Shown in pieces: positions 12,826-35,021 of a stretch of 46,750 nucleotides of DNA (its first letter is position 1; each line of letters opens with the position of its first letter). The stretch comes from Bdellovibrionales bacterium (GTDB lineage Archaea > Nanobdellota > Nanobdellia > Woesearchaeales > UBA583). The stretch spans positions 1 to 46,750 of the forward strand of contig CAXPJQ010000014.1 in NCBI GenBank assembly GCA_964217375.1, written 5' to 3'. Under the pieces are notes generated by a model, which saw only the letters and a list, made by a program, of their open reading frames with translations, did no database searches and was not told the DNA's origin. A program made the translations under genes and the position numbers.

Positions 12826-12881
12826 AGCGACTGGCGGGAATTGAACCCGCGACCTCTGCATTACCAATGCAACGCTCTACC
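12826..12881 (-). pseudogene. 3' portion (about nt 18-72 plus discriminator) of host tRNA-Thr(GGU), ending in the attL core
   Basis: The reverse complement reads GGTAGAGC-G-TTGCA-TTGGTAA-TGCAG-AGGTC-GCGGG-TTCAATT-CCCGC-CAGTCGC-T. The sequence 5' of it (CAGCCGATTGCTGAGC) cannot pair with the 3' acceptor strand. Confidence 0.75.
12861..12881. repeat. attL core: 21-bp direct repeat ttaccaatgcaacgctctacc
   Basis: Identical 21-mer at 34996-35016. Similarity extends 7 more nt with 2 mismatches (gctcagc vs actgagc). Confidence 0.85.
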
Positions 12882-13744
12882 GCTCAGCAATCGGCTGTAA
12901 GCCTCAAGAACGGGGATTTGAGAGAAGTGAAGGGAGTTTTAGTTTATATCGTATATACGAAAAAAATTATTCTAAGTATTTAGAGTATATTGAGCAGTAC
13001 TCTCCTTGTTATAGAAAGTCTATGTTTTATGCTATTCAAAAGTTGTTTAAAGAGATAAAAACAATAAATGAACCTAAGGACATTCTTGCGACTATTAAGA
13101 AGAAACGATTAGATATACAGTATTCGATGAAATGTCTTCGGAATTGGCTTAATTTCTGTGAGCAAGAGGAGTTAATGGATGAGTTTAACCTTCATAAGTA
13201 TCGTAAGAAGTTTAAAATCCCTCAGCAACATAAACCAGATGTGTTTGTTCCGTCAAAAACTCAAGTAGATAGTTCTTTTGCTCAAGTTAGAGATTATTCT
13301 TATATGGACTATATAGTTATGAGAGTTTTGCTTGAAAGTGGTTGTAGGATTACTGAGTTGAAGTATTTTATTGAAACATTTAATCCTTCTTTGGTTACAA
13401 TTGAGAATGGTGTTGCTTGTTATCCTCTAACTTATCTTAGACATAATAAGAACTCTTACTTTATGTTTATGAGTGAGAATACTTTTAATGAATATGTTAA
13501 GCTCACAGAGGAGTTGAAGGGATACAAGATTTGTAAACTAATAACACATATTAGAAGACATAAGTTAACGCCTATGAAATATTATCGTAAGTATGCATTT
13601 ACCTTAATGATTGACTGTGAGATTGATATGGAAATTGCTAACTATATCCAAGGTCGTGTTTCAAGTAATATTGGAGTAAATCATTATCTTGCTAAGAAGC
13701 AAATTGCAATAAAAGAATACAAGAAGTTTTTGGAGGTCATTTAG
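12882..13744 (+). CDS. Int(C): C-terminal catalytic part of a partitioned SSV-type tyrosine recombinase
   Basis: The frame is open from 12845 through the att core into the track ORF 13022..13744, with no stop between 12845 and 13744. Tyrosine-recombinase-like motifs are LLESGCRITEL (box I Arg), YYRKYAFTLM (box II Arg) and GVNHYLAKK (candidate catalytic Tyr). Confidence 0.7.
12946..12960. repeat. Second copy of the atatcgtatatacga motif (contains the 12-bp perfect palindrome tcgtatatacga, 12949-12960)
   Basis: The 15-mer is identical to 34786-34800. It lies 65 nt from attL inside the Int(C) reading frame. Confidence 0.6.
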
Positions 13745-14201
13745 TTATAATCTCCCATTCTGGGATTCTATCAACTCTCCTGTTTGCTCCACTTGATGAA
13801 GGAAGAACAACTGTTTCATATCCTAATTCTTCAAAGACTCTTTTATGTTCTCCAGCTTTTTTTCCGTTTAAACAAATTAGTTTTATGTTTGGATATTGTT
13901 GTTTTAGTTTTGAAAAATCATTTAATTCCTCATCTTTGATATTACTATCAAGACTTCCCTCTCTATAGCTTTGATGAAATACATCCCACAGACCAATAAA
14001 ATGTTTCTTTAATGATTGGAGTTTAGTTTTATAATCTGTTTTAAAATCTTCATTCAATACATCTCCAAGTAATTTCCAGAAATCATTTGTTTTCTTTGCA
14101 TAGTATTCTTGTTTTTCTATTGATTCATCTCCTGGAAGAGAACCTAAGATTAATATCTTAGTTGTTTCATTTATTATTGGTTTTAATCCTTGCTTTATCA
14201 T
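13737..14201 (-). CDS. Family-6 uracil-DNA-glycosylase superfamily protein (hypoxanthine-DNA / DNA-deoxyinosine glycosylase-like)
   Basis: Family-typical pattern ILILGSLPGDES...YYAKKTNDFW...GLWDV...REGSLDSNI...LNDF...NGKKA...LPSSSGANRR. Confidence 0.7.
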   Translation of the reverse strand: MIKQGLKPIINETTKILILGSLPGDESIEKQEYYAKKTNDFWKLLGDVLNEDFKTDYKTKLQSLKKHFIGLWDVFHQSYREGSLDSNIKDEELNDFSKLKQQYPNIKLICLNGKKAGEHKRVFEELGYETVVLPSSSGANRRVDRIPEWEIITK

Positions 14202-14971
14202 TCTCTTATAACTTCTAATTGTGATTCAATATCTTCAATTAATGAATTAACATTATCAACTAATTGATTTAACATTTCAAGTGTTATTGTAATATCATTG
14301 CCATCTTTGTCTTTTCCATTCCTATGAACTAAGTCGTGTCTATTCATTACTCCTTTTATTAAAATACTCAAGTCTTCAGGGAAATTAATATCAAATACAA
14401 TTTTATATAAACTTTTTACTTTAGGAAGATTGTGATACATTAATTCGTTTAATTCCTTAGATACTTCTCCTCTCATAAAATCATATATGTCTTCAATTTC
14501 CTTTTCTTCAGTTTTAATTAATATCTGCGGGAGCGTGAACTTTATTTCGTTATTAAATGGTTTATATTTAAGTATAAACTCTTTCATAAAATCATAATCA
14601 TTTAAGACATTATATTTTAATGCATCTCCAAGGTAAGTTTCCATTATTGTTATTGTGTTTATATAAAAGAGTCTAATAAAAAAATCATTTTGTTCTAATG
14701 ATTCTAAAAGTTCAAAATTATTAACAGCTTTTTTTATCTCTTTGATTCCATTCAATGCATTAAGATAATATTCTGAAGGTATATCCTCAAAATCTGGTTC
14801 TGCCATATCTACATCTCTAAAAGTAGAATAACCACAAGCCCTACAAGAAAAAGAATGTTCGAATCCAGCAAGATAATTTGCTTGTTGTCCATCAGACATA
14901 TCTTCTAAATCTTCATAATCTTCTTCAAGTAGGCATTCTCCACAACTAGGACATATTTCTTCTTCAACCAT
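14198..14971 (-). CDS. Zinc-ribbon protein with a C-terminal HEPN-like (Rx4H) domain
   Basis: N-terminal CPSCGEC...CRACGY. C-terminal helical region with VMNRHDLVHRNG (R-x4-H). Family not identified. Confidence 0.4.
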   Translation of the reverse strand: MVEEEICPSCGECLLEEDYEDLEDMSDGQQANYLAGFEHSFSCRACGYSTFRDVDMAEPDFEDIPSEYYLNALNGIKEIKKAVNNFELLESLEQNDFFIRLFYINTITIMETYLGDALKYNVLNDYDFMKEFILKYKPFNNEIKFTLPQILIKTEEKEIEDIYDFMRGEVSKELNELMYHNLPKVKSLYKIVFDINFPEDLSILIKGVMNRHDLVHRNGKDKDGNDITITLEMLNQLVDNVNSLIEDIESQLEVIRE

Positions 14972-16703
14972 TTTTAGACATTATTCTATAAATCTTATCA
15001 TATTGCTTTTCATTTAAGATATTTTTGTTTTTTTCAACAATATCATCTAAAAATAATACTGCAATTTCCAATTCATTTAATTTAGCCAGTTCTTCATCAT
15101 CAAGATATGGTCTTTCAAAAAAGAAAAGTTTTTTTATGATTGTTTTATTATTCATATCAAGTTTTCTTTCTTTACAGTATTTTGGAAGATATTTTATTAC
15201 ATCATCAAAGTGTTTTTTTACAGTTTTTATATCTGCATAATTTGTTTTAGATTGTATTACATATATTTCATTTTCAGTTACTATTAATGAATCAATTTCT
15301 CCTTTGTCAAACTCGTGTCCCCAGTCAATGTGAATTATTTTATCCTTAATTGTTTTGATGTTTATGTATAAATGAATTAACTCATTTAGCATACTATTTG
15401 AATCTTTAAGTGAGTTTTCTAACATTACTTTTTTTACAAAATTCCTACAATGCTTTGATAAATAATTATGAAATATTTTAGGTTCTATTGAATATTCTAA
15501 ATAATTGAACTTATCTTTATGCTCTTCTAATAAAATATCCATTCGCATTTTGCCATTTGACCTATATCCATCTTTTGCACTTAAAGCGGTATCTTTAAAT
15601 AATAACCAATAAGAACCATTTGATAGGCTTGTTCCTTGATAGATATAAATTAAATAAGAATGTGCATAATCAACTTTTGAAGTATTATATTTAAACTCAA
15701 TAATTTCTGTTTTTTCGTTTCTCATTAAAGAAAAGAGAACAAGCTGAAAGAATATAGGAAATGTTTCATCATATCCATGTTTTACTGATGATTCATTAAT
15801 ATAATCAATATTTTGAAGCATTATATCTCTATTTCTTAATAATACTTTTAAATCTCTTTCTGAGGTTATTTTTTCAATATAGTTTTTATGGCTGATACTA
15901 TAGTCTACATCATATATATCTTTTCCAAATTCAAAATCTAATTCTGCAATAACATAATCTCTAATTCTACATCCTAAATGATGTATCTCTCCCCATGTTG
16001 AGGCATCCTTAAAAGATTTTAACAATTTATTATCTACTTTATTTTCAAATAAATATGCAATAGTTATAGCGAAACCTTTAATATAATTTGAAACATTATT
16101 TTTTACTTCCTCTGTATAAAATGAGTATTTTTCATAGTCTTCAAAAGGCAACAGATTATAAAAATAATCTTTTGGTCCGGAGTATTCAAATTTATCAGTT
16201 TTCAAATCATAATCTCCATCTAAATAAGGTTTGCTATTTGCAATTAGAAATAAAAAAACATTTTCTTTTTTTACACCTTTATTTTTTTTGTATTTAGTGT
16301 TATCAAAATAATATTTTTGTATCTCCTTTATTTTTTTAAGAAAGTTGCTAATTATATTATCTAAATCAGATTTAGATTTATTTAACCTTTTATCTTCTAT
16401 TTTTTTTCTAAACCCTTCTAATCCTTTTATTAAATCAATATCTTTACTTTTAGTTTTAATATTTTTATCTAAATGTTTGGAAGTTAAGTTTCCACTCCAA
16501 GAAATAAGTTCGTCTAAGTCATCAGAGATTAAACACTCCATAGAATGAATTAAATTATTTATTGTTAATTCTATAAGCATATAATAACCTTTTTCATATT
16601 CGCCTTCATTAATATTATTTTGTTTGAGATAATCTTTAAACTTTTTATTGATAATTGAGTTTAAGAAAAAACACTCACACTCGAGATTATCTAACCAGCT
16701 CAT
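14964..16703 (-). CDS. Large hypothetical protein with a C-terminal Mrr/NERD-like PD-(D/E/Q)xK nuclease-type motif
   Basis: C-terminal GEIDSLIVTENEIYVIQSKT (D...QxK, as in the Mrr catalytic domain). The N-terminal ~450 aa has no recognisable motif. Confidence 0.4.
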   Translation of the reverse strand: MSWLDNLECECFFLNSIINKKFKDYLKQNNINEGEYEKGYYMLIELTINNLIHSMECLISDDLDELISWSGNLTSKHLDKNIKTKSKDIDLIKGLEGFRKKIEDKRLNKSKSDLDNIISNFLKKIKEIQKYYFDNTKYKKNKGVKKENVFLFLIANSKPYLDGDYDLKTDKFEYSGPKDYFYNLLPFEDYEKYSFYTEEVKNNVSNYIKGFAITIAYLFENKVDNKLLKSFKDASTWGEIHHLGCRIRDYVIAELDFEFGKDIYDVDYSISHKNYIEKITSERDLKVLLRNRDIMLQNIDYINESSVKHGYDETFPIFFQLVLFSLMRNEKTEIIEFKYNTSKVDYAHSYLIYIYQGTSLSNGSYWLLFKDTALSAKDGYRSNGKMRMDILLEEHKDKFNYLEYSIEPKIFHNYLSKHCRNFVKKVMLENSLKDSNSMLNELIHLYINIKTIKDKIIHIDWGHEFDKGEIDSLIVTENEIYVIQSKTNYADIKTVKKHFDDVIKYLPKYCKERKLDMNNKTIIKKLFFFERPYLDDEELAKLNELEIAVLFLDDIVEKNKNILNEKQYDKIYRIMSKNG

Positions 16704-17213
16704 TTATTCTACCTCAATTCTTAAGTCCCATAGTTTAGTTTTTGCATCCTTCTCATCTTCTCCTTGCTTATAATCATACCAGAATAAATATTGTATTTCA
16801 TATAGTCCTTTTTTGTTTGGATTAAACTCGTAATTGAATATTCCTTCTCCATTACCGTTGATTATTAATTCTTTATCTTCAGTTCTTTGTATTGAGTATT
16901 CTTTTATTTCTTCTCCATCTAATTTAATTGAATTAACTTTTACATTTGCGGGGATTGAACCCTCATAATTTGACTTAAAAAGTAATGATATATTCATCAT
17001 ATCTTTTTCTCTTGCTGTGTCTTGTTGAGGTGAGGAGATTAGAATGTCATTATTTAAACTACCTTTTCCCAAAGCATTTATTTTATTTGTTTGATAAACA
17101 TCAACTCCTATTGACAATAATGCAATTGCAATACTTAAAATACTAATCCAAAATGTCCAATTAATCTTTTTCTTTTCTTTTTCAACTTTTGGTTTATTCT
17201 CTGATTTGGACAT
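16704..17213 (-). CDS. N-terminally membrane-anchored beta-rich protein
   Basis: Lys-rich N-terminus, one TM segment (WTFWISILSIAIALLSIGV), then a beta-strand-like domain. Its stop abuts the start of the next gene. Confidence 0.5.
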   Translation of the reverse strand: MSKSENKPKVEKEKKKINWTFWISILSIAIALLSIGVDVYQTNKINALGKGSLNNDILISSPQQDTAREKDMMNISLLFKSNYEGSIPANVKVNSIKLDGEEIKEYSIQRTEDKELIINGNGEGIFNYEFNPNKKGLYEIQYLFWYDYKQGEDEKDAKTKLWDLRIEVE

Positions 17214-17649
17214 TTTTCACCTCCGTATCTAATAACTCGTCACCTTCATATAGATTAAAAGTAAAATTATAGTTTTCTCCACCATTATCATATAATCTGG
17301 ATTCAAATTCAATAGAATAAGTTGTTATCTGGTCTGGATATAATTGGTCAAGTTCAATTTTCTCATTTAATCTTACATATCTATTATATGTTCTCCATTT
17401 ATTATCATCATAAACAATTTCTAATTCTGGTTTGATTATTGTTTTACCATCATTTATTATTTGAAATTCAATATTAATATCTTCGTTTCTTGAGAGATTA
17501 TCTGGCATATCTATTTTTTGAAAGTAATGATCTTGTAAAAAAGGAACTTTATTGTAAAACTTAGGACTACCAATAACCATAAATAATAAAACAACCACTA
17601 AAATGATTAATATTATTTGAGCATATCCTTTCTTATTTTTTCTTACCAT
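17194..17649 (-). CDS. N-terminally membrane-anchored beta-rich protein
   Basis: One TM segment (AQIILIILVVVLLFMVI) and a beta-sandwich-like remainder. It overlaps the hsdR stop by 17 nt and the next gene by 20 nt. Confidence 0.5.
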   Translation of the reverse strand: MVRKNKKGYAQIILIILVVVLLFMVIGSPKFYNKVPFLQDHYFQKIDMPDNLSRNEDINIEFQIINDGKTIIKPELEIVYDDNKWRTYNRYVRLNEKIELDQLYPDQITTYSIEFESRLYDNGGENYNFTFNLYEGDELLDTEVKNVQIRE

Positions 17650-20600
17650 ATTTCTCTTTTTCCTCCGCTACTGCCATTGGTGTTGTTTCTGTAAAACTTG
17701 GATAAGTGCTCACAGAAGATAGTTGCTCTTGTGATTCTTCATAGATATAATTACAAGACCTTTCTGCTTGTTTCATTACTGTTTCAACAGCCATCTTCTC
17801 TAAGTCTGGAGGATAACCATATTTTCTAAGTATTCTTCTGATATATACTCTCATTTTTGCCCTTACACTTTCTTTTTTATCCCAATCAATAGTAAGACTA
17901 TCTCTAATTGTTTTAGTTAGTTCAAGAGCAATTGTTTTTAATATTTCATCTCCCATAACTTTAACCGCTGAATCATTAATCTCTAATGCTTCATAGAATG
18001 CAAGTTCATCTTCATTAAGTCCAAGTTTCTCTCCTCTTTTGTGAGCTTCTCTTACTTGCTTTGCAATCTCTATTAATTCTGCGATTACTTTTGCAGTTTC
18101 AATTGTTTTGTTTTGATATTTCATAATTGCTTCTTCAAGCATCTCTGAGAACTTTTTCTCCATCACAATATTCTTTCTTAATTTAGATTTGATTTCATCA
18201 TTTAGAAGTTTTTGAAGTAGTTCTAATGCTAAGTTCTTATATGACATAGATTTTACATCTTGCAAGAACTCATCAGATAAAATTGAAATGTCTGGTTTAT
18301 CTATCCCTGCAATTGCAAATATATCTACTACTTCTTCAGAAGTTATTGCTTTAGATATTAATTGATTTAAGTTCTCATCAATAGTTGATAGACTCTTTTC
18401 TCCAGTTTCGTGTTTATCAAATTTCAAAAGAATAGCTCTTACTCCTAACATAAACTCAATCTCTTTTGCAATGTTTAATGCTTCATCACTTGATGCACAT
18501 AATGAGTGAGCTTTCTTCAATCTAATTGTATGTCTTAGATATCTCTTCTTGCTATCTTTATCTACTCCAAGAATAAAGTTTGCAGACTGTCCTAAGAATT
18601 GTAATAACTCAGAAGATTTCTTTAATTTGAAATATTTTTTATAATCAAATCCGTGAAACATCTCTTTTAGTATTTCGTGTTCTTCAAGCATTAGAGCAAT
18701 TGCTTCAGTTGTATCAATACCAATATTTTGTCTATCTTTTTGTGTATAAATTCCAAGTGCTTTCTTTAGCATATCTCCAATTCCCAAATAATCTACAATA
18801 AGTCCTGCTGATTTATTTCTAAATACTCTATTTACTCTTGAGATTGCTTGGATTAAATTATGACCTTTCATAGGTTTATCAACATACATAGTATCAATAC
18901 AAGGAGCATCAAATCCAGTAAGCCACATATCTCTAACAATTACAATTTCTAATTCATCTTTAGGGTTCTTTAATCTCTTACCTATTTCTTCTCTTCCTTC
19001 TTTGTTTCTTATATGATCTTGCATAAATTGTGGGTCTGCAGCACTTCCACTCATAATAACTTTGATCTTTCCTTTCTTGTTATCTTCATTATGCCATTCT
19101 GGTTTTAGTTTTATGATCTCATTATATAATTCAACACAGATTTTTCTTGACATACAAACTATCATAGCTTTTCCGCCAGTATCTTCTCTTCTTCTATCGA
19201 AGTGTTTTAAGATATCTTTTGCAACAAGTTTAAGTCTTTTGTTTGAACCAACTAATGCTTCAAGCCTGGACCATTTAGATTTAAGTTTTTGTTTTGAATC
19301 TAATTCTTGTGATTCTGTTAGTTCTTCGAAGTCTTCTTCAATCTTAGGGATTTGGTCTTTTAATAAACCAATCTTTGCAAGCCTACATTCATAATAAATT
19401 GGAACTGTTGCTTTATCTTTAATTGATTGTGTCATATCATACACATCGATATAATCTCCAAAGATTGCAGGAGTATTAATATCTGTTCCTTCAATAGGTG
19501 TTCCAGTAAATCCAATAAATGATGCATTAGGTAGTGCATCTCTTATATTCTTAGCAAATCCATCAATTAAATCATATTGTGTTCTGTGGGCTTCATCAGC
19601 AATCACTACAATGTTTCTCCTATCTGATAATTGAGGATATATGTCTCCTTTTTCATCTGGCATAAACTTTTGAATTGTTGTGAATATGATTCCTCCAGAT
19701 TCTACTGATAAAAGTTCTCTTAGGTTTGTTCTTGATTTTGCTTGTTGCGGAATTTGTCTTAGCAAATCTGAGGATAGTGAAAATGTATTATATAATTGCT
19801 CATCTAAGTCATTTCTATCTGTTAAAACTACAATAGTTGGATTATCTAATTCAAGAATTATTTTCCCAGTATAAAATGTCATAGTTAGACTTTTACCAGA
19901 ACCCGTTGTATGCCATACTACTCCAATTTTCTTAGTTCCGCTTGATGAAGTTGCAAGTTTTGTTTTCTCTACTGCTTTTTGAGTTGCATAGTATTGGTGA
20001 TATGCTGCAAGTATTTTATATACATTTTCTCCATCATCTTGGAATAAGATAAAATGATGTATTATTTCAAGTAGCTTTTCTCTATCAAACATTCCTTTGA
20101 TTTGAGTTTCAAGTTGCATAAAGTCATTTGTGATACTTTCTCCATCTATTGTTTTCCAACTCATAAATCTATCAAAGTCTGCAGTAATTGTTCCAGCTCT
20201 TGCGAATGTTCCATCACTAATGATTGTAAAAGCATTATATGAGAAAATTGTAGGGATATCATTTTTGTAAGTTTGGATTTGATTGTATGCTGATTTTATG
20301 TCTGCTTTCTCGTCAGTTGCATTTTTGAACTCAATTACTACTATTGGCAGTCCATTTACAAATACAATTAAATCTGGTCTTCTATTGTTTTTCTCTACTA
20401 TTGTAAATTGATTAACAACACAGAAGTCATTGTTTTTTAAGTTCTTTTTATCAAATAACCATACTTTATCTCCTTTGATTCTATTCTTATCTTTATATTC
20501 AACATCTACACCATCAGTTATATATTTATGAAATATTTTATTATTAATAGTTAAAGAAGGAGAAGATTGTATTTTTAGTTTTTTAATAGCTTCTTTTATT

Positions 20601-21322: not shown

Positions 21323-21325
21323 TTT

Positions 21326-22549: not shown

Positions 22550-22550
22550 T

Positions 22551-24798: not shown

Positions 24799-24804
24799 TT
24801 TACA

Positions 24805-26379: not shown

Positions 26380-26424
26380 TATCTACAATTTATTTTCAAG
26401 AATAAATGATTTTGGGATAAAAAA

Positions 26425-26688: not shown

Positions 26689-26788
26689 AAATTATTTGCA
26701 AGTCATCTATAAATAAAAAGAAAGTTGCGTTTGAATTGTAATTGAATTGCAAAAGATTTTTAAAACAATAAAAACACAAGATAGTATT

Positions 26789-27319
26789 ATGAGTAAAAAA
26801 GATGAAAAAAATGAAAAAAGTTGGTTTAGAAGACATCCTATTTTAACGGTTATATTAGGATTAGTTATCTTAGGAATGATTGGAAGTTTCTTAGAAAAAT
26901 CTGAGGAAGCAGTTAAAACTAATAGTTTAAGTTTAGATTCTCAAACAGATTTAACCCAAATCATTCTTCCAAATGATAAAATACCCACAAAATACTACCT
27001 AAGTGAAAAAGAATTTGAGTTAAATGAAAGTGGATTTATTTCAGGTTATAAAAAAAACTTAGCTGAATCTGATGGATTTAGTGGAACTGCTATAACAATT
27101 ACATTTAGCAAATTCTCAGATACATCTCAATCTTTAAACTATTATAATAAATTAACAAATGAAATTAAAGATGCAAGAGGTTATGAAGAAAAAACAGTTT
27201 ATTCTCCATTTGAATGTTTTGCTTATCAAAAAGAATTAGGAATGAATAATCAAAATGAAGTAATTTGTTATAAAGATAATATTGTATTTAGTATAAAAGG
27301 AATTGGTTTTATGTATTAG
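26789..27319 (+). CDS. Membrane-anchored hypothetical protein
   Basis: The track ORF starts at a TTG (26747), but the ATG at 26789 (MSKKDEK...) is more plausible. One TM segment (ILTVILGLVILGMIGSFL) and an extracytoplasmic domain. Confidence 0.45.
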   Translation: MSKKDEKNEKSWFRRHPILTVILGLVILGMIGSFLEKSEEAVKTNSLSLDSQTDLTQIILPNDKIPTKYYLSEKEFELNESGFISGYKKNLAESDGFSGTAITITFSKFSDTSQSLNYYNKLTNEIKDARGYEEKTVYSPFECFAYQKELGMNNQNEVICYKDNIVFSIKGIGFMY

Positions 27320-27366
27320 TATGATTTAGAAGATTTATTTGATTTACAAAAAGAACATATCTTAAA

Positions 27367-27732
27367 TTAATAATATAATATTTTTGATATTTTATCATTA
27401 TACTTTCTTAACTTTTTTAATAGATTAAATGTTGGCATTTTAAGCTCTGACCTCAAAGTTACTTCTGTTGCAATTATAGATCTTTCTCTTTCAATTCTTG
27501 TTATCATTATTGATTTAATTAATTCCTTTCTTCTAAAAATTATTTCATCTGCAATACGATTTACAGTTGTATGAGAAACATTATGTTTTCTTGCTAATTG
27601 AGACCTGTTCCAAAAAAAACCATATTTATTTATTGTATGATTAATATCCTCTTTTAATCTTCTTTTTGCTCTATATCTTAATTGTCCATTATTTTTGTGA
27701 GTATTAAGATTATAATATACAAACTTTTTCAT
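27367..27732 (-). CDS. Small HTH DNA-binding protein
   Basis: HTH-like RSQLARKHNVSHTTVNRIADEI. The internal ATG at 27732 (MKKFVYY...) is preferred over the Cys/Phe-rich N-terminal extension of the track ORF. Confidence 0.4.
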   Translation of the reverse strand: MKKFVYYNLNTHKNNGQLRYRAKRRLKEDINHTINKYGFFWNRSQLARKHNVSHTTVNRIADEIIFRRKELIKSIMITRIERERSIIATEVTLRSELKMPTFNLLKKLRKYNDKISKILYY

Positions 27733-27893
27733 AGAATTATTATGATTTTCAACTTTTATATATTTATTTTTACAAAATTGAACGCAACATAAGAGCAAAA
27801 AAATAAAGATGTATATACAATGTTTATACATTTAGCTTTTTCTTTATAAATAAATAAGAAAAATACTATCAAATGTATAACTTTAATATAGAT

Positions 27894-28259
27894 TCACATT
27901 TTGGCAGTAAGTTTCTTGATATAATTAGTTAATGAACCAATAATTTCATCCAACATTTCAGACAGTCTATCATAAGTTCTGGAACTTATATATTCTAAAT
28001 CTTTAGCTACTAATAATTGATATTCTACTTCTTTCGCAGAACCTAAAGAGTGATGGAGGAATTGTTTATAGTCTTTTATAGTATTTCTCCCCGATCCTTC
28101 TGCAATATTTGAGCCAATACTTGTAACTGCTCTTTTTATTTGATTAGTTAAAGAGAATTGCTCATCCTTTGGGAAGTCCTTTGTTGCTTTGTAAACTTCA
28201 AGAGTTAATTGATGAGCTCTTTTAAAAAAGTTTAAATCTTTATAATTTACTGCTACCAT
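27894..28259 (-). CDS. Four-helix-bundle protein (23S rRNA intervening-sequence protein / Avd-like family)
   Basis: Family-typical YKDL.F.KRAHQLTLEVYKATKDFPKDEQFSLTNQIKRAVTSIGSNIAEGSGR...EVEYQL. Confidence 0.75.
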   Translation of the reverse strand: MVAVNYKDLNFFKRAHQLTLEVYKATKDFPKDEQFSLTNQIKRAVTSIGSNIAEGSGRNTIKDYKQFLHHSLGSAKEVEYQLLVAKDLEYISSRTYDRLSEMLDEIIGSLTNYIKKLTAKM

Positions 28260-28260
28260 T

Positions 28261-30867
28261 TTACTCTAATAGTTTATATTCTCCTTTTCTTGGTTCAAAT
28301 ATTACTCCTTCATTTTTTAAATCATATAAGGTTTCATTTATATTCTCACAGTAGTTAGGGATAAGATCTTTTATATCTTCTATTTTTAATAACTTTTTAT
28401 TATTAAATAAATCTATTAACATCTCTTTTGTAGATAGTGTAGTATTAGTAGAGTTAGTAGTGTTAGTATTATTAGTAGATAGAGTAGATATATTTTTTTC
28501 TTGGTTATTACCTTCATTATTTTTTGTTATTTTATTACTCCTACTTACCTCTTTTACTTCTCCTTCCTCTACATCCTCTACTGTGAGATATTTATCAAAT
28601 TCTTTTTTCTGAATTATTTTTATCAATTCTTCTTTAGTAAATGTATAATATGTATATCCTCCAGATCTTTTTTTCTTAAAAATTTGACTATGATTTGTAA
28701 ATAATCTTTTTCCCAAATGTACATTAAAAGCAGCTCTATCAGTATGATATTCTAAATAATCACTATTATTTATAGCATATGAAGTTATCTCTTTAACTCC
28801 TAAAGTACATTTATTTGAACTACTATTTTTAGATAATTCATATATTGATTTTAATGCAATAAAGTCCCAATTATCTTCTATGTTAGATTCTTTCTGCTTG
28901 TTTACATTATCCTTTAGAAAATCATTAATCTCTTCAAAGACATCTTCTCCAATGATTTTTGCAATAGTTAGAATTGATTCTACATTTTCTAAGTCTCTAT
29001 TATTAAAATCTTTAAAATAACTTTCATCATAAGTTTTCTCTATTAATTTCCAATTATCTAAAGTCCAAATATGTAAATCATCAACTATGTCTTGCCAGAT
29101 TTTATCAGTCTCTTTTATTTTCTTTCTAGATATCTTAGGATTATTTGTTTTAATCATATTAATCTTAATACATCTTGATTCAGTAACTTCTGGCAATCCA
29201 ATAATATTATTGATTACAACTGGTGAATATCCATTATAACTATTTACTCTATGATTTTTCCCATCTGCTTTGTAACTTTTACTACCTTTTTTATAGAAAA
29301 CTTCAATAAATTGTCTTCCTGCAATTTTTTTATCTTCTGATAGGTTATCATAATTGTCAATTACTAAAGTACCACAAGTGCTTTCAACTACTCGCTCCAT
29401 ACTTGCGGGAGTAATATCTCCATGTATAGCATTATATGTTAATAAAGAATAAATCTTTGCTTGTGTAGATTTTCCAGACCCATGTTCAGCTTGAAAATAC
29501 ATTCTTCCCTTTGCATTAAATATAGGACAGGAATAATTTGAGATTATATCTGCTGCAATGATTGAATGAATTCTAGGGTCTTCGTGATATACATATAACT
29601 TATTTAATCTTTTTATTTCTTCAAAAAGTTCTCTTATATTTATTGGTTCATAATCTTCATCTAAATAATTTTGAATACTTTGATTCGACCATGGATTACT
29701 AATAACTGCTATGTCAAATTTGTTTCTATATGATAGTTTAAACTTATCTCTAATCTCATCATTTTCCTTTGACCATACAGTGTGTATGTTTCTATCTGAT
29801 GTAATTAAAATATCTATAAGTTCATCAGAACTTTCTTTTTGCACTGAGTTGCCAAAATAAAAAACATCATTATGAATTCCAGTTCCAATTCTATCAATTT
29901 TGTTTTTCTCATTAGATAATAAATCTTTAATCTTAGCTTTACCTTTATTATTCTCTTTTTTTAATGATTTAATGTGATTATTATAATTCTTTAAGGCTTT
30001 TTTATATGTGCCTTTCTTGTAGTTCATAGTTGCAGATTTCCATTTTCCAATCTTACAAGAACTCATAATCTCATCAATCAAATCAAAGTCAATAAAACCC
30101 TTCATTAATAGTTTATCTACTAAAGATAATTCTACTTCACTTCTATTTCCTTTTTCAATAGTTGTATTGTAAAGAGTTCTTAATGATTTATTTTTATTGA
30201 TAGTCTCTTCCCAAGAAGATTCTTTTTTTACTTCTTTTTGACTTATAACTTTTAGAACATTTTTATTATTTAATTTGATATTTTCTTTAGTTAGTTCTTT
30301 AAAATATAAAGTTTTAAGTTGAAACTTGTCTTTCTTGTAATGAAATGATTCGGGAATTCTAAATATCCTTGCAAGATCATTAACTCCTTTGTCAACAGTA
30401 TTTGAAATATTATTATATAAAAAGTAAATAAAATCTTTAACAGTTTGTTGATTTTCAACTTTCCATTCAATATCTATTAAAATATGATACCCATTCCCAC
30501 TTTCTGCAATATATGAATATAATATATTATTTTCATCTAAAAAATGTTTTACTTTCTCAAAGTCTTCTTTTTTTGCATTATCTAAATCAATAAAAATAAA
30601 ATTGATTCTATCAATAAATCCATTTCCTCTTTTTCTTTTATTTAATGGGTTGAAATTGATAAAAACTCCCCAACCTTCTTTGTTTTTTGTTTTTATATTA
30701 GAGATTAAACTTTCAACATTTCCATCATTAGAAAAATATGAAATTGGAAGATTTTTGTTTAAATCTTTATTCTTATCATTAAAAGATATAACTTCAAAAA
30801 AAGATTTTTTAGTATTTCTTTTGTTAATAATATAATCTAAAACTTCTTTCATGTTATTCTCCTCCAT
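28261..30867 (-). CDS. Replication protein: archaeo-eukaryotic PrimPol domain + SF3/D5-like P-loop helicase + C-terminal wHTH (pRN1 ORF904-like architecture)
   Basis: PrimPol motifs FIFIDLD (DxD) and ESGNGYHILI (sGxGxH). Walker A AEHGSGKST and Walker B-like TLVIDNYD. C-terminal wHTH-like LYDLKNEGVIFEPRKGEYKL. Confidence 0.7.
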   Translation of the reverse strand: MEENNMKEVLDYIINKRNTKKSFFEVISFNDKNKDLNKNLPISYFSNDGNVESLISNIKTKNKEGWGVFINFNPLNKRKRGNGFIDRINFIFIDLDNAKKEDFEKVKHFLDENNILYSYIAESGNGYHILIDIEWKVENQQTVKDFIYFLYNNISNTVDKGVNDLARIFRIPESFHYKKDKFQLKTLYFKELTKENIKLNNKNVLKVISQKEVKKESSWEETINKNKSLRTLYNTTIEKGNRSEVELSLVDKLLMKGFIDFDLIDEIMSSCKIGKWKSATMNYKKGTYKKALKNYNNHIKSLKKENNKGKAKIKDLLSNEKNKIDRIGTGIHNDVFYFGNSVQKESSDELIDILITSDRNIHTVWSKENDEIRDKFKLSYRNKFDIAVISNPWSNQSIQNYLDEDYEPINIRELFEEIKRLNKLYVYHEDPRIHSIIAADIISNYSCPIFNAKGRMYFQAEHGSGKSTQAKIYSLLTYNAIHGDITPASMERVVESTCGTLVIDNYDNLSEDKKIAGRQFIEVFYKKGSKSYKADGKNHRVNSYNGYSPVVINNIIGLPEVTESRCIKINMIKTNNPKISRKKIKETDKIWQDIVDDLHIWTLDNWKLIEKTYDESYFKDFNNRDLENVESILTIAKIIGEDVFEEINDFLKDNVNKQKESNIEDNWDFIALKSIYELSKNSSSNKCTLGVKEITSYAINNSDYLEYHTDRAAFNVHLGKRLFTNHSQIFKKKRSGGYTYYTFTKEELIKIIQKKEFDKYLTVEDVEEGEVKEVSRSNKITKNNEGNNQEKNISTLSTNNTNTTNSTNTTLSTKEMLIDLFNNKKLLKIEDIKDLIPNYCENINETLYDLKNEGVIFEPRKGEYKLLE

Positions 30868-31147
30868 TACTTTCTAAAAACTCACAAAATAAGTTTGTAA
30901 ATCTATATCGATATAACATAGTAGCACTTTCTTCTCTTTCAATAACTTTATATTCACATAATTCTGAGAGTATTGTTTGACTTCTTTCATTTGAAACAAA
31001 TAAAAAATCTGCAATATTATCTCTATTAATTCCTCTTCTCCTACAATAGTATAACTTCTTTAATTGAGTTAACCAAGGCAATGAAGAGAAAACCTTATAT
31101 TGTTTGAAATCTCTTTCATTATTAGGTGGATTAATCTTGTCGTTCAT
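30854..31147 (-). CDS. Small winged-helix protein
   Basis: 97 aa. RDNIADFLFVSNERSQTILSELCEYKVIERE. Overlaps the replicase start by 14 nt. Confidence 0.45.
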   Translation of the reverse strand: MNDKINPPNNERDFKQYKVFSSLPWLTQLKKLYYCRRRGINRDNIADFLFVSNERSQTILSELCEYKVIEREESATMLYRYRFTNLFCEFLESNGGE

Positions 31148-31423
31148 TTAATCTTCACCTCTTTGTTCTGATTCTTTATACTTCAATAAATACCAGGAGT
31201 ATAAATCATTTAACATTGTGATTAATTCTGGAATCTCTTTTATGTTAAAATTAACAGTATTCTTATTCCATTCTCCATCTTTGTTGTATGACTTAGATAA
31301 TCCTAAAGTCATAATTTCATACTCATCTCCTTCTTTTTGTACCTTGTTTTTCCATAAAGTTGTTTCAACAAGTTTAACTCTTTGTTTTCTAATTGGTTTA
31401 TTGTTCTCCATTTTCTTTTGCAT
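31148..31423 (-). CDS. Small conserved protein, paralogue of 39832..40080 (function unknown; a PC4/YdbC-like ssDNA-binding fold is only a guess)
   Basis: Motifs shared with the paralogue: W-K-x-K, EY, (S/N)Y(N/K)(K/D)..G...K.T..FNI.(E/D)IP..I..L...YS. Confidence 0.45.
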   Translation of the reverse strand: MQKKMENNKPIRKQRVKLVETTLWKNKVQKEGDEYEIMTLGLSKSYNKDGEWNKNTVNFNIKEIPELITMLNDLYSWYLLKYKESEQRGED

Positions 31424-31538
31424 TTAAATAATAAATAAGACTTACTTTGATAAGTCCAGAAAGCTTTTGACCATTCCTTTCTGCATATTTCTCGGCTCTT
31501 AAAGCCACTTCATCATCTAATGATATTGTTTTAATCAT
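31398..31538 (-). CDS. Ribbon-helix-helix (CopG/Arc-like) protein
   Basis: From the internal ATG at 31538: MIKTISLDDEVALRAEKYAERNGQKLSGLIKVSLIYYL (beta-strand plus two helices). It is the first gene of the replication operon, as in pRN-type plasmids. Confidence 0.55.
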   Translation of the reverse strand: MIKTISLDDEVALRAEKYAERNGQKLSGLIKVSLIYYLNAKENGEQ

Positions 31539-31602
31539 TGTAATAAAACCATTAAAAAGCATTAAGTTTAAATAAACAGGAATATTTATAATCAATTAAG
31601 TT

Positions 31603-32556
31603 ATGAAAGAAATCCCAAAAATAGGCCTAAAATACAAGTATTCTTTTAAAATATATCAGTTATTATTAAAACAAGAGAATGGACTAACTTTAAAACAAAT
31701 CATTTCTAATTTATGGGATATCAAAACAGAAATATCAGAATTTATTTCTGTTAAATGTATGCAATGTGGTGAGGATAATTTGAAAAAGTCTTCAAACTTT
31801 ACAAAATGGATAAATGAATTACCTTTTTACTTGAATAATAATTTAGATCTTGATTTTATTGATATTAGATGTTCAAAGTGTCATAAAAGGTTAATAAAAA
31901 CAAGAAAAAGAAAATTAATCAAAAAATTGGATTATAAAAGAATATTTGATGTTGATTTGCCTGAAACTGTTTTTAAGAGCAAGTCGGGTCATTTGTTAGC
32001 TCGAGAGATTGACGAATTGTTAGATAACGAATTAATTGAAAAAATAGAAAATAAATATTACCTCAATTTATTTACATTTATTTTTTTGATTACTAATATT
32101 GAAGGGGACCCTGGTGTTTTAGAGTGTGAAATTGCAAATACAAAAATACCTCTTTTTTTTATTAATGATTATATTTGTCCTAATTTAAATAAAATAAATA
32201 ATATAAATGATATTTTTAGAAATATTTTTAATTCTCTTATTATAATTAATCCACAAGAATTTGAGAAAAATATTATTGGAAACGAGACACAAACATATTT
32301 TAGTAAAACCGAGAAAAAATTGTTAATCGAATTACAAAGAAAATGTTGGTTATTTGAAAAAGAAACTCAAAAATCTTCAATTTTTGATTTATATAAATCC
32401 ATATTGGTTCAGACTAATTTTAAACAATATAAAAAAAACGAATTAAAAGATGCAAAATTAATTGCAGAAGAATTCAAATTAAATGATATTGCAAATTTTA
32501 TTTATCAAAATGTTAAAAATACTGAATCTTTATTATTAAATAAATATAGAAAATAA
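31603..32556 (+). CDS. Hypothetical protein with a CxxC...CxxC zinc ribbon
   Basis: CMQCGE...CSKCHK. No family recognised. Its stop abuts the tRNA gene. Confidence 0.45.
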   Translation: MKEIPKIGLKYKYSFKIYQLLLKQENGLTLKQIISNLWDIKTEISEFISVKCMQCGEDNLKKSSNFTKWINELPFYLNNNLDLDFIDIRCSKCHKRLIKTRKRKLIKKLDYKRIFDVDLPETVFKSKSGHLLAREIDELLDNELIEKIENKYYLNLFTFIFLITNIEGDPGVLECEIANTKIPLFFINDYICPNLNKINNINDIFRNIFNSLIIINPQEFEKNIIGNETQTYFSKTEKKLLIELQRKCWLFEKETQKSSIFDLYKSILVQTNFKQYKKNELKDAKLIAEEFKLNDIANFIYQNVKNTESLLLNKYRK

Positions 32557-32628
32557 AGCTATCGGCGGGAGTTGAACCCGCGACCTCTTGCCTACCAAGC
32601 AAGCGTTCTACCACTGAACTACGACAGC
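32557..32628 (-). tRNA. tRNA-Thr (anticodon GGT), intact, element-borne, no encoded CCA
   Basis: Manual cloverleaf: GCTGTCG-TA-GTTC-AGTGGTA-GAAC-G-CTTGC-TTGGTAG-GCAAG-AGGTC-GCGGG-TTCAACT-CCCGC-CGATAGC-T. All stems pair, with one G-U in the acceptor. Confidence 0.85.
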
Positions 32629-32674
32629 AATAAGGATTATAATAATAAAACTCTCAATTGATTTTAAAAGTTTT

Positions 32675-34711
32675 CTAATTAATTGATTTGAATATGTCTT
32701 CAAACCAAATTAATGAACCTTCTGCAAGTTTCTTTGTTGTAAGATTTACATCTCTTGAATGTCTTATTGCATTTCTAAAATCGTTAATATGAACAAAGTG
32801 TTTTTCTAAGTCAGATTTTGATTTAAAGAAGTCTTCAAATTTATCCCAGTTAGTTCTTATTGTTTTGAAATATTGTAAAATTGTGAAAAAGTCAATAGGA
32901 TTCATTTCTTCTCTTTTTTCAGAAGGATTTTTGTTAAGATGAAGTTCTATTCTTTCTTCAACTCTCTCTCTTAACTCCTGTGAGATAGAAGAATTATAAA
33001 AATCATTACCTAATGTTTTAACAATTAAACTTCTCATATTCTTCTCAAAACTATCAATTAACTTTTCTTCATTTGATGTCATTTCTTTTTCAATGGAAGT
33101 AAAATCTCCAACTAAACTTTTTATCTCTTCTACTATCTTGGTTGCTCTATAGTTTAAGAATTGTTCAAAGTTATCTTCTTCGATTCCAGTTTCATTCAAA
33201 TTATCTATTAAATGAGTTTTCAATGTATTATTGATGGAATTATTTTCAATTAATGATAAGTATTCTTTTGGACTTTTCTTCCCTACATTCTTATTTGTAC
33301 CAGATGGCATAAACATAATATTTGCAATACTATCTTTTAATCCATTAAGTTCATTATGGCTTGCTCTTATATGTTCTTGTGGAAAGATATGATGGTATTC
33401 TTTTGCATTAAACTTTGCAAAATTGTTGAATACTATCTCAGAATTATTAAAAATATTCTTAGGTTTTTTAGATGCAAGGATACATAATAATGTTTTACAG
33501 AAAGCATTTCTAAGGGAGTATTTTTGCTGTATTATTCTTTCAACAGTTACTTGTGGGATAAGGAAATTAAACTTAACTTCTTTATTATCTACAATATTAT
33601 TGATTTGTTTTATATCTTCTACTATTTTTCCTTCTACTGAAGAACTGAATCTATTTGAAACTGCAGCTTTCCAGAACCAATTAACTAACTCTTGAATTTG
33701 ATTTTGATTCTCACTCTTACCTTTGATATTATAAAAAAAGTAACTTATAGGAACAAGCATTGAAGGAAATGGTAATATTTTTGAAGATCCTATGTTTAGA
33801 TTTGTCTTCAAAAAATCAATACTTCTTTTTATTGCTTCCATAGATTCTTTCCAATTATTTTCAATTTCTTCTCTTGTTAAAGATAAAATATCTTTTCTAT
33901 GACAACCACCTTTCACATTTGTGGATATAACTTGAAGTAATGTGATATCATTGATGCCATCATATTTTTGTTCTTTTAGTTCTTTTTGAAATATGTGAAG
34001 TCTTTCTTTTAGGTTAAATGATTTAGACCAGGTTTTTGCAACCATTAAATCAACTACATTTAATATCTGTCCTGAATTGTTAATTCTCTCGAAAATCTGA
34101 CATACTACATCAATTGGTTGGTTTTTAACATATATAACTGAGAACTCATAGTTTTTGAAAGCAGAAATTACTTTATTAAATATTTGAAATCTTGTTTCAT
34201 TTAGCCCTCTTGCTATTGTATAATTCTCAAATATTATTTCCTTTAATGATAAATATCTTCTTCCTTCTTCATCAATTAAATCTTCTTCATTTTCTCCAGA
34301 CATACTTTTGAACTCTTCTGTGTCTAAATCAAAATAAATATCTAATTTTTTATTTTTTATTTGACCATTTACTTTAATCTTAATCTCTGCATTCTCTACA
34401 CTTGCAAATAATGAAGTAATTCTTTGTTGCCCATCTAATACATAGTTTACTTCTCCAGAATAAGTAGAATCAATTGGGATATTGCCTATATTTCTGTGAG
34501 TTAATTCTTGGTTTGTCTCCCAAAATAAGAAAGAACCTATTGGATAATGTTGATATATACTATCCAATAATTTGATAACTTGGCTTTTATCCCATACAAA
34601 ATCTCTTTGAAAATCAGGTATTTTTAATCTACCATCTTTAATCTCATTTATTAAAGAATCAAACTTTTTTCTATCTGGTTTTATCTTCTCACCATTCATA
34701 ATATAATCCAT
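32675..34711 (-). CDS. GmrSD-like type IV restriction-type protein: DUF262 (ParB-like, DGQQR) + DUF1524-like His-Me finger + C-terminal HEPN (Rx4H)
   Basis: IPDFQRDFVW and VLDGQQRITSL (DUF262). KEYHHIFPQEHI...NIMFMPSGTNK (DUF1524-like). C-terminal FRNAIRHSRD (Swt1-type HEPN-like). The start is placed at ATG 34711 (alternatively 34699) rather than the track's 34852. Confidence 0.65.
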   Translation of the reverse strand: MDYIMNGEKIKPDRKKFDSLINEIKDGRLKIPDFQRDFVWDKSQVIKLLDSIYQHYPIGSFLFWETNQELTHRNIGNIPIDSTYSGEVNYVLDGQQRITSLFASVENAEIKIKVNGQIKNKKLDIYFDLDTEEFKSMSGENEEDLIDEEGRRYLSLKEIIFENYTIARGLNETRFQIFNKVISAFKNYEFSVIYVKNQPIDVVCQIFERINNSGQILNVVDLMVAKTWSKSFNLKERLHIFQKELKEQKYDGINDITLLQVISTNVKGGCHRKDILSLTREEIENNWKESMEAIKRSIDFLKTNLNIGSSKILPFPSMLVPISYFFYNIKGKSENQNQIQELVNWFWKAAVSNRFSSSVEGKIVEDIKQINNIVDNKEVKFNFLIPQVTVERIIQQKYSLRNAFCKTLLCILASKKPKNIFNNSEIVFNNFAKFNAKEYHHIFPQEHIRASHNELNGLKDSIANIMFMPSGTNKNVGKKSPKEYLSLIENNSINNTLKTHLIDNLNETGIEEDNFEQFLNYRATKIVEEIKSLVGDFTSIEKEMTSNEEKLIDSFEKNMRSLIVKTLGNDFYNSSISQELRERVEERIELHLNKNPSEKREEMNPIDFFTILQYFKTIRTNWDKFEDFFKSKSDLEKHFVHINDFRNAIRHSRDVNLTTKKLAEGSLIWFEDIFKSIN

Positions 34712-34785
34712 ATACAACTTATTTATAAATATATTTCTCTCTACTGTGAGCCAAGAAATGACAACCCTTTTAAAATCTGCTTGCG

Positions 34786-34803
34786 ATATCGTATATACGA
34801 TAT
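34786..34803. promoter_or_regulatory. Perfect 18-bp palindrome atatcgtatatacgatat, 8 nt upstream of the Int(N) ATG
   Basis: Read directly. The sequence is self-complementary, and its 15-nt core recurs at 12946-12960. Confidence 0.55.
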
Positions 34804-34811
34804 TTTGAAAA

Positions 34812-35021
34812 ATGGGACGAATTAAGAAAAATCGAGTAGTTGTGGCAATCAAGTTAGATACAGAATTAAAAAATCTCTTAGATGCCAGAAAAGTGGAGAA
34901 GAGCTCCTTTATTAATGAAATACTGTGGAAACACTTCGCATTAGAGAGGAATATTCCCCAATCTCAAAACTCCTATCTCAGCTCTCCCGAAAGCCTTACC
35001 AATGCAACGCTCTACCACTGA
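34812..35021 (+). CDS. Int(N): N-terminal fragment of the partitioned integrase; stands alone as a 69-aa RHH-like protein
   Basis: VVVAIKLDTELKNLLDARKVEKSSFINEILWKHF resembles a ribbon-helix-helix fold. The ORF reads through the attR core (LTNATLY) and stops 5 nt beyond it, in host tRNA sequence. Confidence 0.65.
   Translation: MGRIKKNRVVVAIKLDTELKNLLDARKVEKSSFINEILWKHFALERNIPQSQNSYLSSPESLTNATLYH
34996..35016. repeat. attR core: 21-bp direct repeat ttaccaatgcaacgctctacc
   Basis: Identical to 12861-12881. Confidence 0.85.

Follow-up and report, generated by a model that had tools for sequence, protein, structure and literature searches.

What has become of a tRNA-Thr(GGT) gene whose two parts lie some 22 kb apart on the metagenomic contig CAXPJQ010000014.1, and why does each part border a piece of an integrase gene? 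The stretch analysed here (46,750 nucleotides, hereafter the window) had been read earlier from its letters alone, and this original prediction held that a 22-kb element had partitioned its own integrase gene by integrating, in the manner of SSV1. We conclude that positions 12882-35016 are very probably a 22,135-bp integrative plasmid-like element, inserted into the tRNA-Thr(GGT) gene by its own SSV-type suicidal integrase. The features at the two ends of the element are the following.

12861-12881, plus strand: left copy (attL) of the 21-bp attachment (att) core, equivalent to nucleotides 17-37 of the tRNA (D-loop up to and including the anticodon loop).
34996-35016, plus strand: right copy (attR) of the 21-bp att core.
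34812-35021, plus strand: int(N), an open reading frame (ORF) of 69 aa comprising a ribbon-helix-helix (RHH)-like domain, a linker and the right core, and running into the tRNA 5' part.
12861-13744, plus strand: int(C), comprising the core-encoded residues 62-68 and residues 69-355 with the helical and catalytic domains.

A scan of the whole window finds the 21-mer TTACCAATGCAACGCTCTACC exactly twice, both times on the plus strand and at the two places where a direct repeat had been proposed, 12861-12881 and 34996-35016, and no further copy with up to two mismatches is present in the window, none being expected from 100 shuffles. The spacing of the repeats (34996 minus 12861) is 22,135 bp. As had also been read, the 69-aa ORF 34812-35021 ends in ...SLTNATLYH*, thereby crossing the right core and stopping 5 nt further, and the frame at the left copy is free of stop codons from 12845 to 13744 and merges into a 240-aa ORF (13022-13744) that starts at the first ATG of int(C), at 13022. 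Fusion of 34812-35016 to 12882-13744 yields 1068 nt, that is 355 codons and a stop codon. The proposal that a deletion between the repeats would join the integrase and restore the tRNA gene thus stands for the 355-aa ORF and for the tRNA rebuilt on excision, but the tRNA is destroyed as long as the element is integrated. The reconstructed attP junction reads ..CCCGAAAGCC + core + GCTCAGCAATCGG.. and lies within the integrase ORF, in a linker (residues 48-84) that is predicted to be disordered and that separates the small RHH-like N-terminal domain from the core-binding and catalytic domains, so that recombination between attP and attB left int(N) at the right end and int(C) at the left, each piece abutting one copy of the 21-bp core.

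The proposed identity of the fused protein as a tyrosine recombinase is borne out by profile, PDB, fold and signature matches, all of which agree. The reconstituted 355-aa protein matches the SSV-type archaeal integrase family PF16795 (Phage_integr_3, 'Archaeal phage integrase') with E=5.4e-26 and 91.8 bits (cutoff 27), residues 191-353 aligning with model positions 3-160 of 161. A phmmer search against the PDB returns only structures of the SSV1 Int catalytic domain, 3VCF (E=4.4e-16), 4DKS and 3UXU, all with E~4e-16, and the same three are the best matches in Foldseek (target-normalised template modelling (TM) scores of 0.82-0.83, E=1.5e-7), with archaeal XerA, Cre, Tn1549 Int and lambda Int coming next, matched over two domains. 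The reconstituted protein has the SSV1-type signature R...KxxR...Y in its residues R224, K301-Y-Y-R304 and Y337; across alignments of 10 and 47 family members the conservation of these residues is complete or at least 90%, and K258 and R327 are likewise (near-)invariant. A 2021 review of archaeal tyrosine recombinases (PMC8371274) contrasts this signature with the R...YxxR...Y of pNOB8-type enzymes and assigns PF16795 to the SSV, pTN3-like and pT26-2-like families. The PF16795 domain, the signature, the position of attP in the int ORF and the SSV1 Int catalytic fold all place the enzyme in the SSV-type class.

An AlphaFold2 model built from the 47-sequence alignment (mean predicted local distance difference test score (pLDDT) 87.4, predicted TM score 0.70) has a beta-alpha-alpha unit at residues ~6-47 (pLDDT 87-96); residues 48-84 are disordered, 85-180 form a helical domain, and the catalytic domain occupies 188-355. 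The core-encoded residues 62-68 are situated in the sole disordered segment of this model, which fits a constraint acting on the DNA rather than on the protein. From its topology and one weak NCBIfam match (E=0.0055), we infer that the N-terminal unit is RHH-like.

The target of integration is evident from the two fragments bordering the element.

12826-12881, minus strand: 3' fragment of the host tRNA-Thr(GGT) gene (tRNA positions 17-72), with the left att core at its end.
34996-35032, minus strand: 5' fragment of the host tRNA-Thr(GGT) gene, tRNA positions 1-37.

Joining 12826-12881 to 35017-35032 as an empty site gives, on the minus strand, a canonical 72-nt tRNA-Thr(GGT) in ARAGORN, whereas the same program calls no tRNA at attL, at attR or in the reconstructed attP. 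In Rfam, attL aligns with positions 10-63 only of the tRNA model (42 bits), the acceptor stem being absent and one D-stem pair mismatched, and the element DNA adjoining the core (GCTCAGCAATCGGCTGT) is only loosely like the true tRNA 5' part (ACTGAGCCACAGTCGCT). Since the core spans only positions 17-37 and the mimic of the 5' end is imperfect, neither junction keeps a functional host tRNA, and integration, judged from the sequence, leaves the host tRNA gene destroyed at both junctions. A functional recombinant tRNA at attL in the style of pTN3 is ruled out by ARAGORN and Rfam, and the acceptor strand on the element side does not pair with the 3' strand of the host. Trans-splicing of the two tRNA pieces in the style of Nanoarchaeum was likewise considered: the leader and trailer could form a duplex of -36.0 kcal/mol, matched by 1.7% of shuffles, and the idea is unsupported because the pairing lies off the exon boundaries and a bulge-helix-bulge motif is not shown. 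According to the review (PMC8371274), one of the two junctions has an intact, regenerated tRNA gene in all known cases, the att identity of suicidal integrases is usually 40-50 bp, and the 5' half of a tRNA is targeted only by pTN3-like enzymes, with the gene still being restored. The window element has neither a tRNA regenerated at one junction nor an att identity of ~40-50 bp. Regeneration of the tRNA is however a usual and not a defining property of the SSV-type class, and its loss marks the window variant.

Support for the empty site comes from other genomes. Among 185,579 species-representative genomes, a 34-mer of the uninterrupted tRNA that contains the 21-mer is found in three archaeal genomes only, always within an intact tRNA-Thr(GGT) gene, and with just two copies of the 21-mer in the window, the possibility that it is a common dispersed repeat can be set aside. 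The suggested comparison with a related genome free of the insertion could be made with contig L009 (CAKZOW010000148.1, 'uncultured archaeon'), which has an intact tRNA-Thr gene and no element, and in which a homolog (63% aa identity) of the left-flank 1194-aa gene of the window (8330-11914) stands beside this uninterrupted tRNA gene and on the same side of it. Of the three outcomes named beforehand as refuting the original prediction, none came about. On the other side of the tRNA, L009 carries the 4.1-8.2-kb block of the window in inverted order. When window 4103-12881 is compared with L009 1-7567, the block from 8330 to the tRNA is inverted relative to 4103-8177 and one inversion breakpoint falls exactly at the 5' flank of tRNA-Thr, which may be chance at ~55-75% aa identity; in Thermococcales, chromosomal inversions linked to integrases are known to occur at tRNA genes. 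The EEP-family nuclease gene at 11923-12762 has no homolog in L009.

Furthermore, a sister element is complete on JGI contig Ga0334890_1000983 (L010/L011) and is also present in NCBI assembly GCA_964429995.1, in two Logan assemblies and in one ENA assembly. It is 92-95% identical to the window element at the nucleotide level over the backbone, its Int(C) and Int(N) proteins are 98% and 97% identical to those of the window, and these independent assemblies show the same partition into int(N) and int(C). The sister has unrelated host genes on its two sides and lies next to a cluster of archaeal ribosomal-protein genes; the only sequence common to its ends is the 10-bp TTACCAATGT, and there is no tRNA on either side. 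Two elements of 92-95% identity at two unrelated sites therefore point to recent transposition. The int(C) genes of the two differ by 32 synonymous and 2 nonsynonymous substitutions, and the resulting ratio of nonsynonymous to synonymous rates (dN/dS) of 0.012 indicates strong purifying selection while the elements diverged rather than a decaying pseudogene. The attB of the sister has the 11-mer ATTCATTTAAT on both sides, ~30 bp apart (ATTCATTTAATgcccttaaaagtacaTTACCAATGTATTCATTTAAT; L010 9965-10011, L011 10185-10205), and these paired 11-mers may be due to chance in AT-rich DNA or may be a feature of secondary sites. A third copy is seen on a 796-bp contig (L006, 1-796), where an attL junction with 81% nucleotide identity is found in a different tRNA-Thr(GGT) gene. 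The Int(C) of this copy has a frameshift in the catalytic domain, just past the box I arginine motif (ESGCRVTELKY), which reflects either the decay of a trapped copy or a mistake in the assembly.

Comparison of the three elements also helps in placing the crossover. Strand exchange most likely takes place in or beside the anticodon-loop part of the core, TTACCAA with 1-3 further nt, because the sister ends share only the 10-bp sequence given above and because the anticodon-stem 5-mer of the core differs across the three elements, being TGCAA in the window, TGTCG in the sister and GGTAG in L006, where it matches the stem of its own host tRNA. For SSV1 Int the crossover has been measured in the anticodon loop, according to PMC8371274. 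The attP core is flanked by an 8-bp inverted repeat, AAAACTCC ... GGAGTTTT (window 34967-34974 and 12933-12940), and the wider imperfect complementarity round it, with a predicted duplex of -36.0 kcal/mol against -26.5 ± 4.1 for shuffles, is of marginal significance. In addition, two palindromic motifs are found close to the core.

34786-34803, no strand: perfect 18-bp palindrome ATATCGTATATACGATAT, 9 nt upstream of the int start codon.
12946-12960, no strand: second copy of the 15-nt core of this palindrome, the ATATCGTATATACGA motif, with the 12-bp palindrome TCGTATATACGA at 12949-12960.

The ATATCGTATATACGATAT palindrome is conserved in the sister (L002/L011 at 9978), and the second copy of the motif lies 65 bp inside int(C). 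The window has no more than two copies of the shared sequence CGTATATACG; the sister keeps both, and the int(C) copy is also found in L006. In attP the two copies would flank the core, and they are candidate sites for the RHH-like domain, either as operators for autoregulation or as arm-type sites.

The integrase is not an isolated case. An indexed protein search gave only 2 matches, and an exhaustive search of 1.84 billion representatives gave 310 relatives at E<=1e-3, of which 31 have E<=1e-30. Uninterrupted homologs of 337-375 aa (P0011, P0017, P0018, P0022 and P0025) can be aligned with the reconstituted protein without a break from residues 1-9 to 350-355 and thus straight across the join, and another relative (P0034) is 97% identical to the Int(N) of the window. 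P0011 is encoded on a k141 contig of ~7.3 kb (L004), which is taken to be circular because of a 141-bp terminal overlap, and P0018 and P0022 are encoded on 6-10-kb contigs with plasmid-like genes only. The intact int genes of L004, L016 and L018 carry a segment of tRNA T-arm and 3' acceptor sequence (GGGTTCGAATCCC...) in the same linker, which is antisense to int in two of them (L004, L016) and in the sense orientation in L018. An attP within the ORF is therefore a trait of the whole clade, and the window subclade is exceptional in the segment that it uses, which runs from the D-arm to the anticodon loop. A second, conventional partitioned copy is seen on an 8.9-kb contig (L001, 2936-3921), where P0002, a relative with 41% identity, is a fragment of the Int(C) type whose frame is open back through an intact co-oriented tRNA-Met(CAT), with GlmS and a ribosomal protein gene adjoining; the contig ends before the right end of that element. 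A family-alignment search of IMG/VR gave no relatives of the integrase, and an exact look-up of the window Int(C) protein gave no record of it.

If integration destroys the host tRNA gene, how the host copes with the loss becomes a pertinent question, and the element itself may hold the answer.

32557-32628, minus strand: intact tRNA-Thr(GGT) within the element (ARAGORN; Rfam 70.9 bits, full length).
31603-32556, plus strand: orphan ORF of 317 aa in variable module 4, with only weak zinc-ribbon and helix-turn-helix (HTH) hints.

The element-borne gene is the only intact tRNA in the window according to ARAGORN and Rfam, and it has the same anticodon as the interrupted host tRNA, to which it is identical in 53 of 72 positions. 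It differs from the att core in 6 of 21 positions, one of them in the anticodon loop, and is therefore presumably a poor substrate for the integrase. We consider it reasonably likely that this distinct tRNA-Thr(GGT) substitutes for the lost one and would supply its function to the host. The competing notion, which we find distinctly less likely, is that the internal tRNA is ordinary cargo or a relic of an earlier integration or capture, the host having another such tRNA or tolerating its loss. Codon-supply tRNAs are indeed common on mobile elements, and the gene forms part of a swappable, ~1.2-kb variable module (31418-32592) together with the orphan ORF, 2.4 kb from the element end; no homolog of this ORF was found among 5.8 billion proteins, and in the sister the place of the module is taken by an HTH_5 gene and no tRNA is present. 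Furthermore, the contrast backing a replacement role is a single one, that between window and sister, and host tRNA genes are visible only within the 46.7-kb contig. On the other hand, the anticodon is exactly that of the gene destroyed by integration, the sister interrupts no tRNA and has no tRNA cargo, and the 6 differences in the core would let the tRNA escape the integrase. A nested or tandem element bounded by the internal tRNA was looked for and rejected, as no partial direct repeats of it are found in the window, its sole other similarity there being a T-arm 17-mer in common with the host tRNA fragment, and this lack of partial copies likewise argues against a relic.

While a replacement role is thus preferred for the internal tRNA, the insertion as a whole could also be viewed as the fossil of an old SSV-type integration, domesticated as a fixed and immobile defence island with the int pieces as pseudogenes. 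This view draws on the statement, in PMC8371274, that suicidal integrases cannot re-form their own gene unaided, on the frameshift in the catalytic domain of the L006 copy, on the sister being at the same site in five independent assemblies, and on an exact 33-mer across the attP junction of the excised circle, which has 0 matches in metagenome and viral contig collections; this null result in itself neither supports nor refutes excision. It is made improbable by the facts that both int pieces are intact and the 21-bp repeats perfect, that a dN/dS of 0.012 over 34 substitutions relative to the sister reflects selection on the protein during divergence, and that near-identical elements occupy two unrelated chromosomal sites. 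Still less credible, indeed barely worth entertaining, is that an unrelated rearrangement, such as an island inserted into a resident integrase gene, or an assembly artefact has produced the split integrase and the split tRNA. The window is a single metagenomic contig and the inversion relative to L009 has a breakpoint at the tRNA, but one deletion between exact repeats restores both a canonical tRNA and a colinear full-length integrase, the same type of attL junction is seen independently in L006, and the sister is partitioned identically on independent assemblies.

Integration by the suicidal integrase of the element itself hence remains the explanation we favour, and excision would, by analogy with the literature on such integrases, require that a related element provide a full-length integrase in trans and would rebuild both the 355-aa int gene and the host tRNA. 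Several observations should nonetheless be counted against this reading or against parts of it. Besides the attP 33-mer and the single contrast already mentioned, the position of the crossover comes from comparison of sequences; only the left flank is syntenic with L009, the right flank not being comparable because of the inversion; the N-terminal domain has no significant match to the PDB by sequence, which bears on its assignment as RHH-like; and while the element is called plasmid-like because virus or fusellovirus structural protein families were not detected in any of its ORFs with Pfam and PHROGs, ~10 ORFs are without detectable homologs, making this a tentative call.

The remaining genes of the element, most of which are conserved in the sister or replaced there at defined slots, are as follows.

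13737-14201, minus strand: UDG-superfamily protein of 154 aa (PF03167, E=4.5e-11), 94% identical in the sister; backbone.
14198-17649, minus strand: variable module 1, with ORFs of 257, 579, 169 and 151 aa; absent from the sister.
17633-20797, minus strand: HsdR, 1054 aa (HSDR_N, SWI2_SNF2 and T1RH-like_C; PADLOC REase_I, 1127 bits).
20794-22549, minus strand: variable module 2 in the restriction-modification (R-M) operon, encoding the candidate defence protein PDC-S54 (407 aa) besides an ORF of 146 aa.
22551-23777, minus strand: HsdS, 408 aa (Methylase_S; PADLOC Specificity_I), 34% identical to the sister HsdS.
23767-24798, minus strand: variable module 3, a 343-aa ORF between hsdS and hsdM, without family matches.
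24805-26322, minus strand: HsdM, 505 aa (N6_Mtase, E=1.4e-114, and HsdM_N; PADLOC MTase_I).
Within 26425-28259: small backbone genes for an 87-aa winged HTH protein, a 190-aa protein and a 154-aa protein, conserved in the sister.
27894-28259: 23S-rRNA-IVP/bAvd-like four-helix protein of 121 aa, conserved in the sister and recurring in L004, L016 and L018.
28261-30867, minus strand: replicase-like protein of 868 aa, with a weak primase-polymerase N-terminus and a P-loop NTPase in the C-terminal half.
30854-31423, minus strand: two small backbone ORFs of 97 and 91 aa, upstream of the replicase-like gene and 97% and 91% identical in the sister, without family matches.
32675-34852, minus strand: GmrSD/DUF262-type nuclease, mechanical ORF of 725 aa (GmrSD_N, E=1e-30; PADLOC PDC-M55C and HEC-05).

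The large defence cargo that had been suspected is thereby found, in the form of a type I R-M operon, candidate defence genes embedded in it and the GmrSD-like nuclease. HsdR, HsdM and HsdS occur together with strong Pfam and PADLOC matches, as is appropriate for a type I system, and the identity between window and sister is 98.7% for HsdR and 99.8% for HsdM. The operon is a site of swapping (window 17633-26322; L012 14547-22607) at which HsdS and the embedded genes have been exchanged, the window having the 146-aa, PDC-S54 and 343-aa genes and the sister genes for Abi_C, a zinc-ribbon protein and SduA_C. In PADLOC the PDC-S54 match has E=4.9e-156, and module 2, to which it belongs, is absent from the sister, which has Abi_C there; at module 3 the sister has a 427-aa SduA_C protein (Shedu-like). 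The ORFs of variable module 1 have no informative family matches. In all there are four variable slots between the sisters, at 14.2-17.6, 20.8-22.5 and 23.8-24.8 kb and at the tRNA module, and the backbone common to both includes Int(C), Int(N), HsdR, HsdM, the UDG protein, the 868-aa protein and the GmrSD nuclease in addition to the small genes.

The 868-aa protein is probably a replicase. It has a weak match to PHROG 2478 'DNA polymerase/primase' (E=7e-5), and its C-terminal 450 aa, GSGKS included, are 42% identical to P0154, which carries PF09250, presumably a Prim-Pol domain; no Pfam match and no significant PDB sequence match was found for the protein itself. A gene for a 23S-rRNA-IVP/bAvd-like four-helix bundle is present in every element of the clade examined, usually near a large replicase-like gene (window 27894-28259; L004 6825-7172; L016 5207-5569; L018 9070-9426). 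The 725-aa GmrSD ORF starts at a TTG overlapping the int(N) start on the opposite strand, but the gene calls in the sister are 674-678 aa and the tblastn match begins at residue 13, and the true start is probably ~47 codons downstream, which would leave a ~100-bp divergent promoter region holding the palindrome.

As to the host, an archaeon is supported by the family of the integrase, by the tRNA and left flank in common with archaeal genomes and by the archaeal ribosomal proteins S8e and L15e flanking the sister element. The tRNA segment is identical in a Ca. Woesearchaeota metagenome-assembled genome (MAG) and is also found in two other archaeal MAGs, and this match, together with a GC content of 26%, makes a DPANN host plausible. 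The flanks in the window contain accessory genes only and no host marker genes, namely those for an RNA repair enzyme resembling Pnkp, a prepilin peptidase, surface proteins (DUF2341 and CARDB) and an MMPL transporter. The first of these (window 1855-4047) is a 730-aa protein in which an AAA_33 kinase is fused to a calcineurin-like phosphoesterase and a T4-type RNA ligase; it has no connection with the element.

The window element departs from the described SSV-type members in six ways, these being its host and AT-richness, the short core extending 5'-ward, the loss of the tRNA, the cargo tRNA with the same anticodon, the RHH-like domain and the large defence cargo. In PMC8371274, suicidal integration is framed as a trait of hyperthermophiles of the Sulfolobales, Thermococcales, Archaeoglobales and Methanococcales and DPANN is not mentioned, and we found no paper linking 'SSV-type' with 'DPANN' in the open-access literature. 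The window and the 310 metagenome relatives of its integrase point to a sizeable clade in AT-rich uncultivated archaea, spanning small circular plasmids with an intact int and chromosomal islands with a split one. The variant breaks the stated rule of tRNA regeneration and offers a testable case of host dependence on an element-borne tRNA, and it also shows how a complete multi-system defence island can be acquired in one step by archaea with reduced genomes. More speculatively, and we regard this as doubtful, the subclade may obligatorily knock out the host tRNA-Thr(GGU), so that integrants would survive only with a non-targetable tRNA of their own or by landing off target. If true, the decoding of ACY codons in the host would depend on a mobile element, and the window would hold a live case of an archaeal tRNA gene cut in two by a mobile element, an event that has long been proposed as the start of element-driven tRNA gene fragmentation but has not been observed. 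The splits of Nanoarchaeota tRNA genes and the canonical introns lie at the very position that is bisected in the window.

The resemblance to SSV1 and the integrated plasmid pXQ1 that had been pointed out holds for the partition of int by its own integration, but does not extend to the tRNA, which is not kept intact in the integrated state. With SSV1, SSV2 and pXQ1 of the Sulfolobales the window element has PF16795 and the R..KxxR..Y signature in common, and its integrase matches SSV1 Int in both sequence and fold, albeit with an identity of only ~27% in the catalytic domain. The attP is likewise found near the int 5' end, dividing the gene of the window into an int(N) of ~68 codons and an int(C) of ~287, a tRNA is the common target, and the crossover in the window is probably in the anticodon loop, as was measured for SSV1 Int (PMC8371274). 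In contrast, the host is an AT-rich (26% GC) uncultivated archaeon and not a hyperthermophile of the Sulfolobales, the core is 21 bp long and runs from the D-loop to the anticodon loop where the cores of these Sulfolobales elements are 40-50 bp and lie in the tRNA 3' half, the tRNA is not regenerated, the integrase has an RHH-like N-terminal domain and the cargo is a defence island. Fusellovirus structural genes, as in SSV1 and SSV2, were not detected in the element. The pRN-type plasmids, of which pXQ1 is an example, have a large RepA with a Prim-Pol and a helicase/NTPase domain, to which the 868-aa protein of the window, with its weak match to PHROG 2478 and its P-loop C-terminal half in common with P0154, may be a counterpart.

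The pTN3-like integrases of the Thermococcales are suicidal and of the PF16795 type, and the core of the window, like theirs, runs 5'-ward from the anticodon loop; in pTN3, however, an uninterrupted tRNA is restored and is expressed from the int promoter, whereas the tRNA of the window is antisense to int and is not restored. The pT26-2 family of Thermococcales, Methanococcales and Archaeoglobales comprises integrative plasmids with suicidal integrases that persist widely, related copies being thought to supply the integrase in trans (PMC7253208 and PMC8371274), but these plasmids have conventional 3' tRNA targets, long att sites and other host lineages than that of the window. A precedent for the fate of the tRNA is a model for Caldiarchaeum subterraneum (PMC3293823), in which a recombinase-bearing mobile element separates fragments of a tRNA-Thr(GGU) gene as in the window, and which proposes an element-driven route to disrupted or split archaeal tRNA genes while noting that direct evidence is lacking. 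That case involves a 1.8-kb pNOB8-like element, tRNA introns and a stray 5' fragment, with a functional tRNA gene being kept at the locus, whereas in the window the tRNA gene is cleanly bisected by an SSV-type element that carries a separate, whole tRNA as cargo. The window is thus the cleaner physical example of a bisected tRNA gene.

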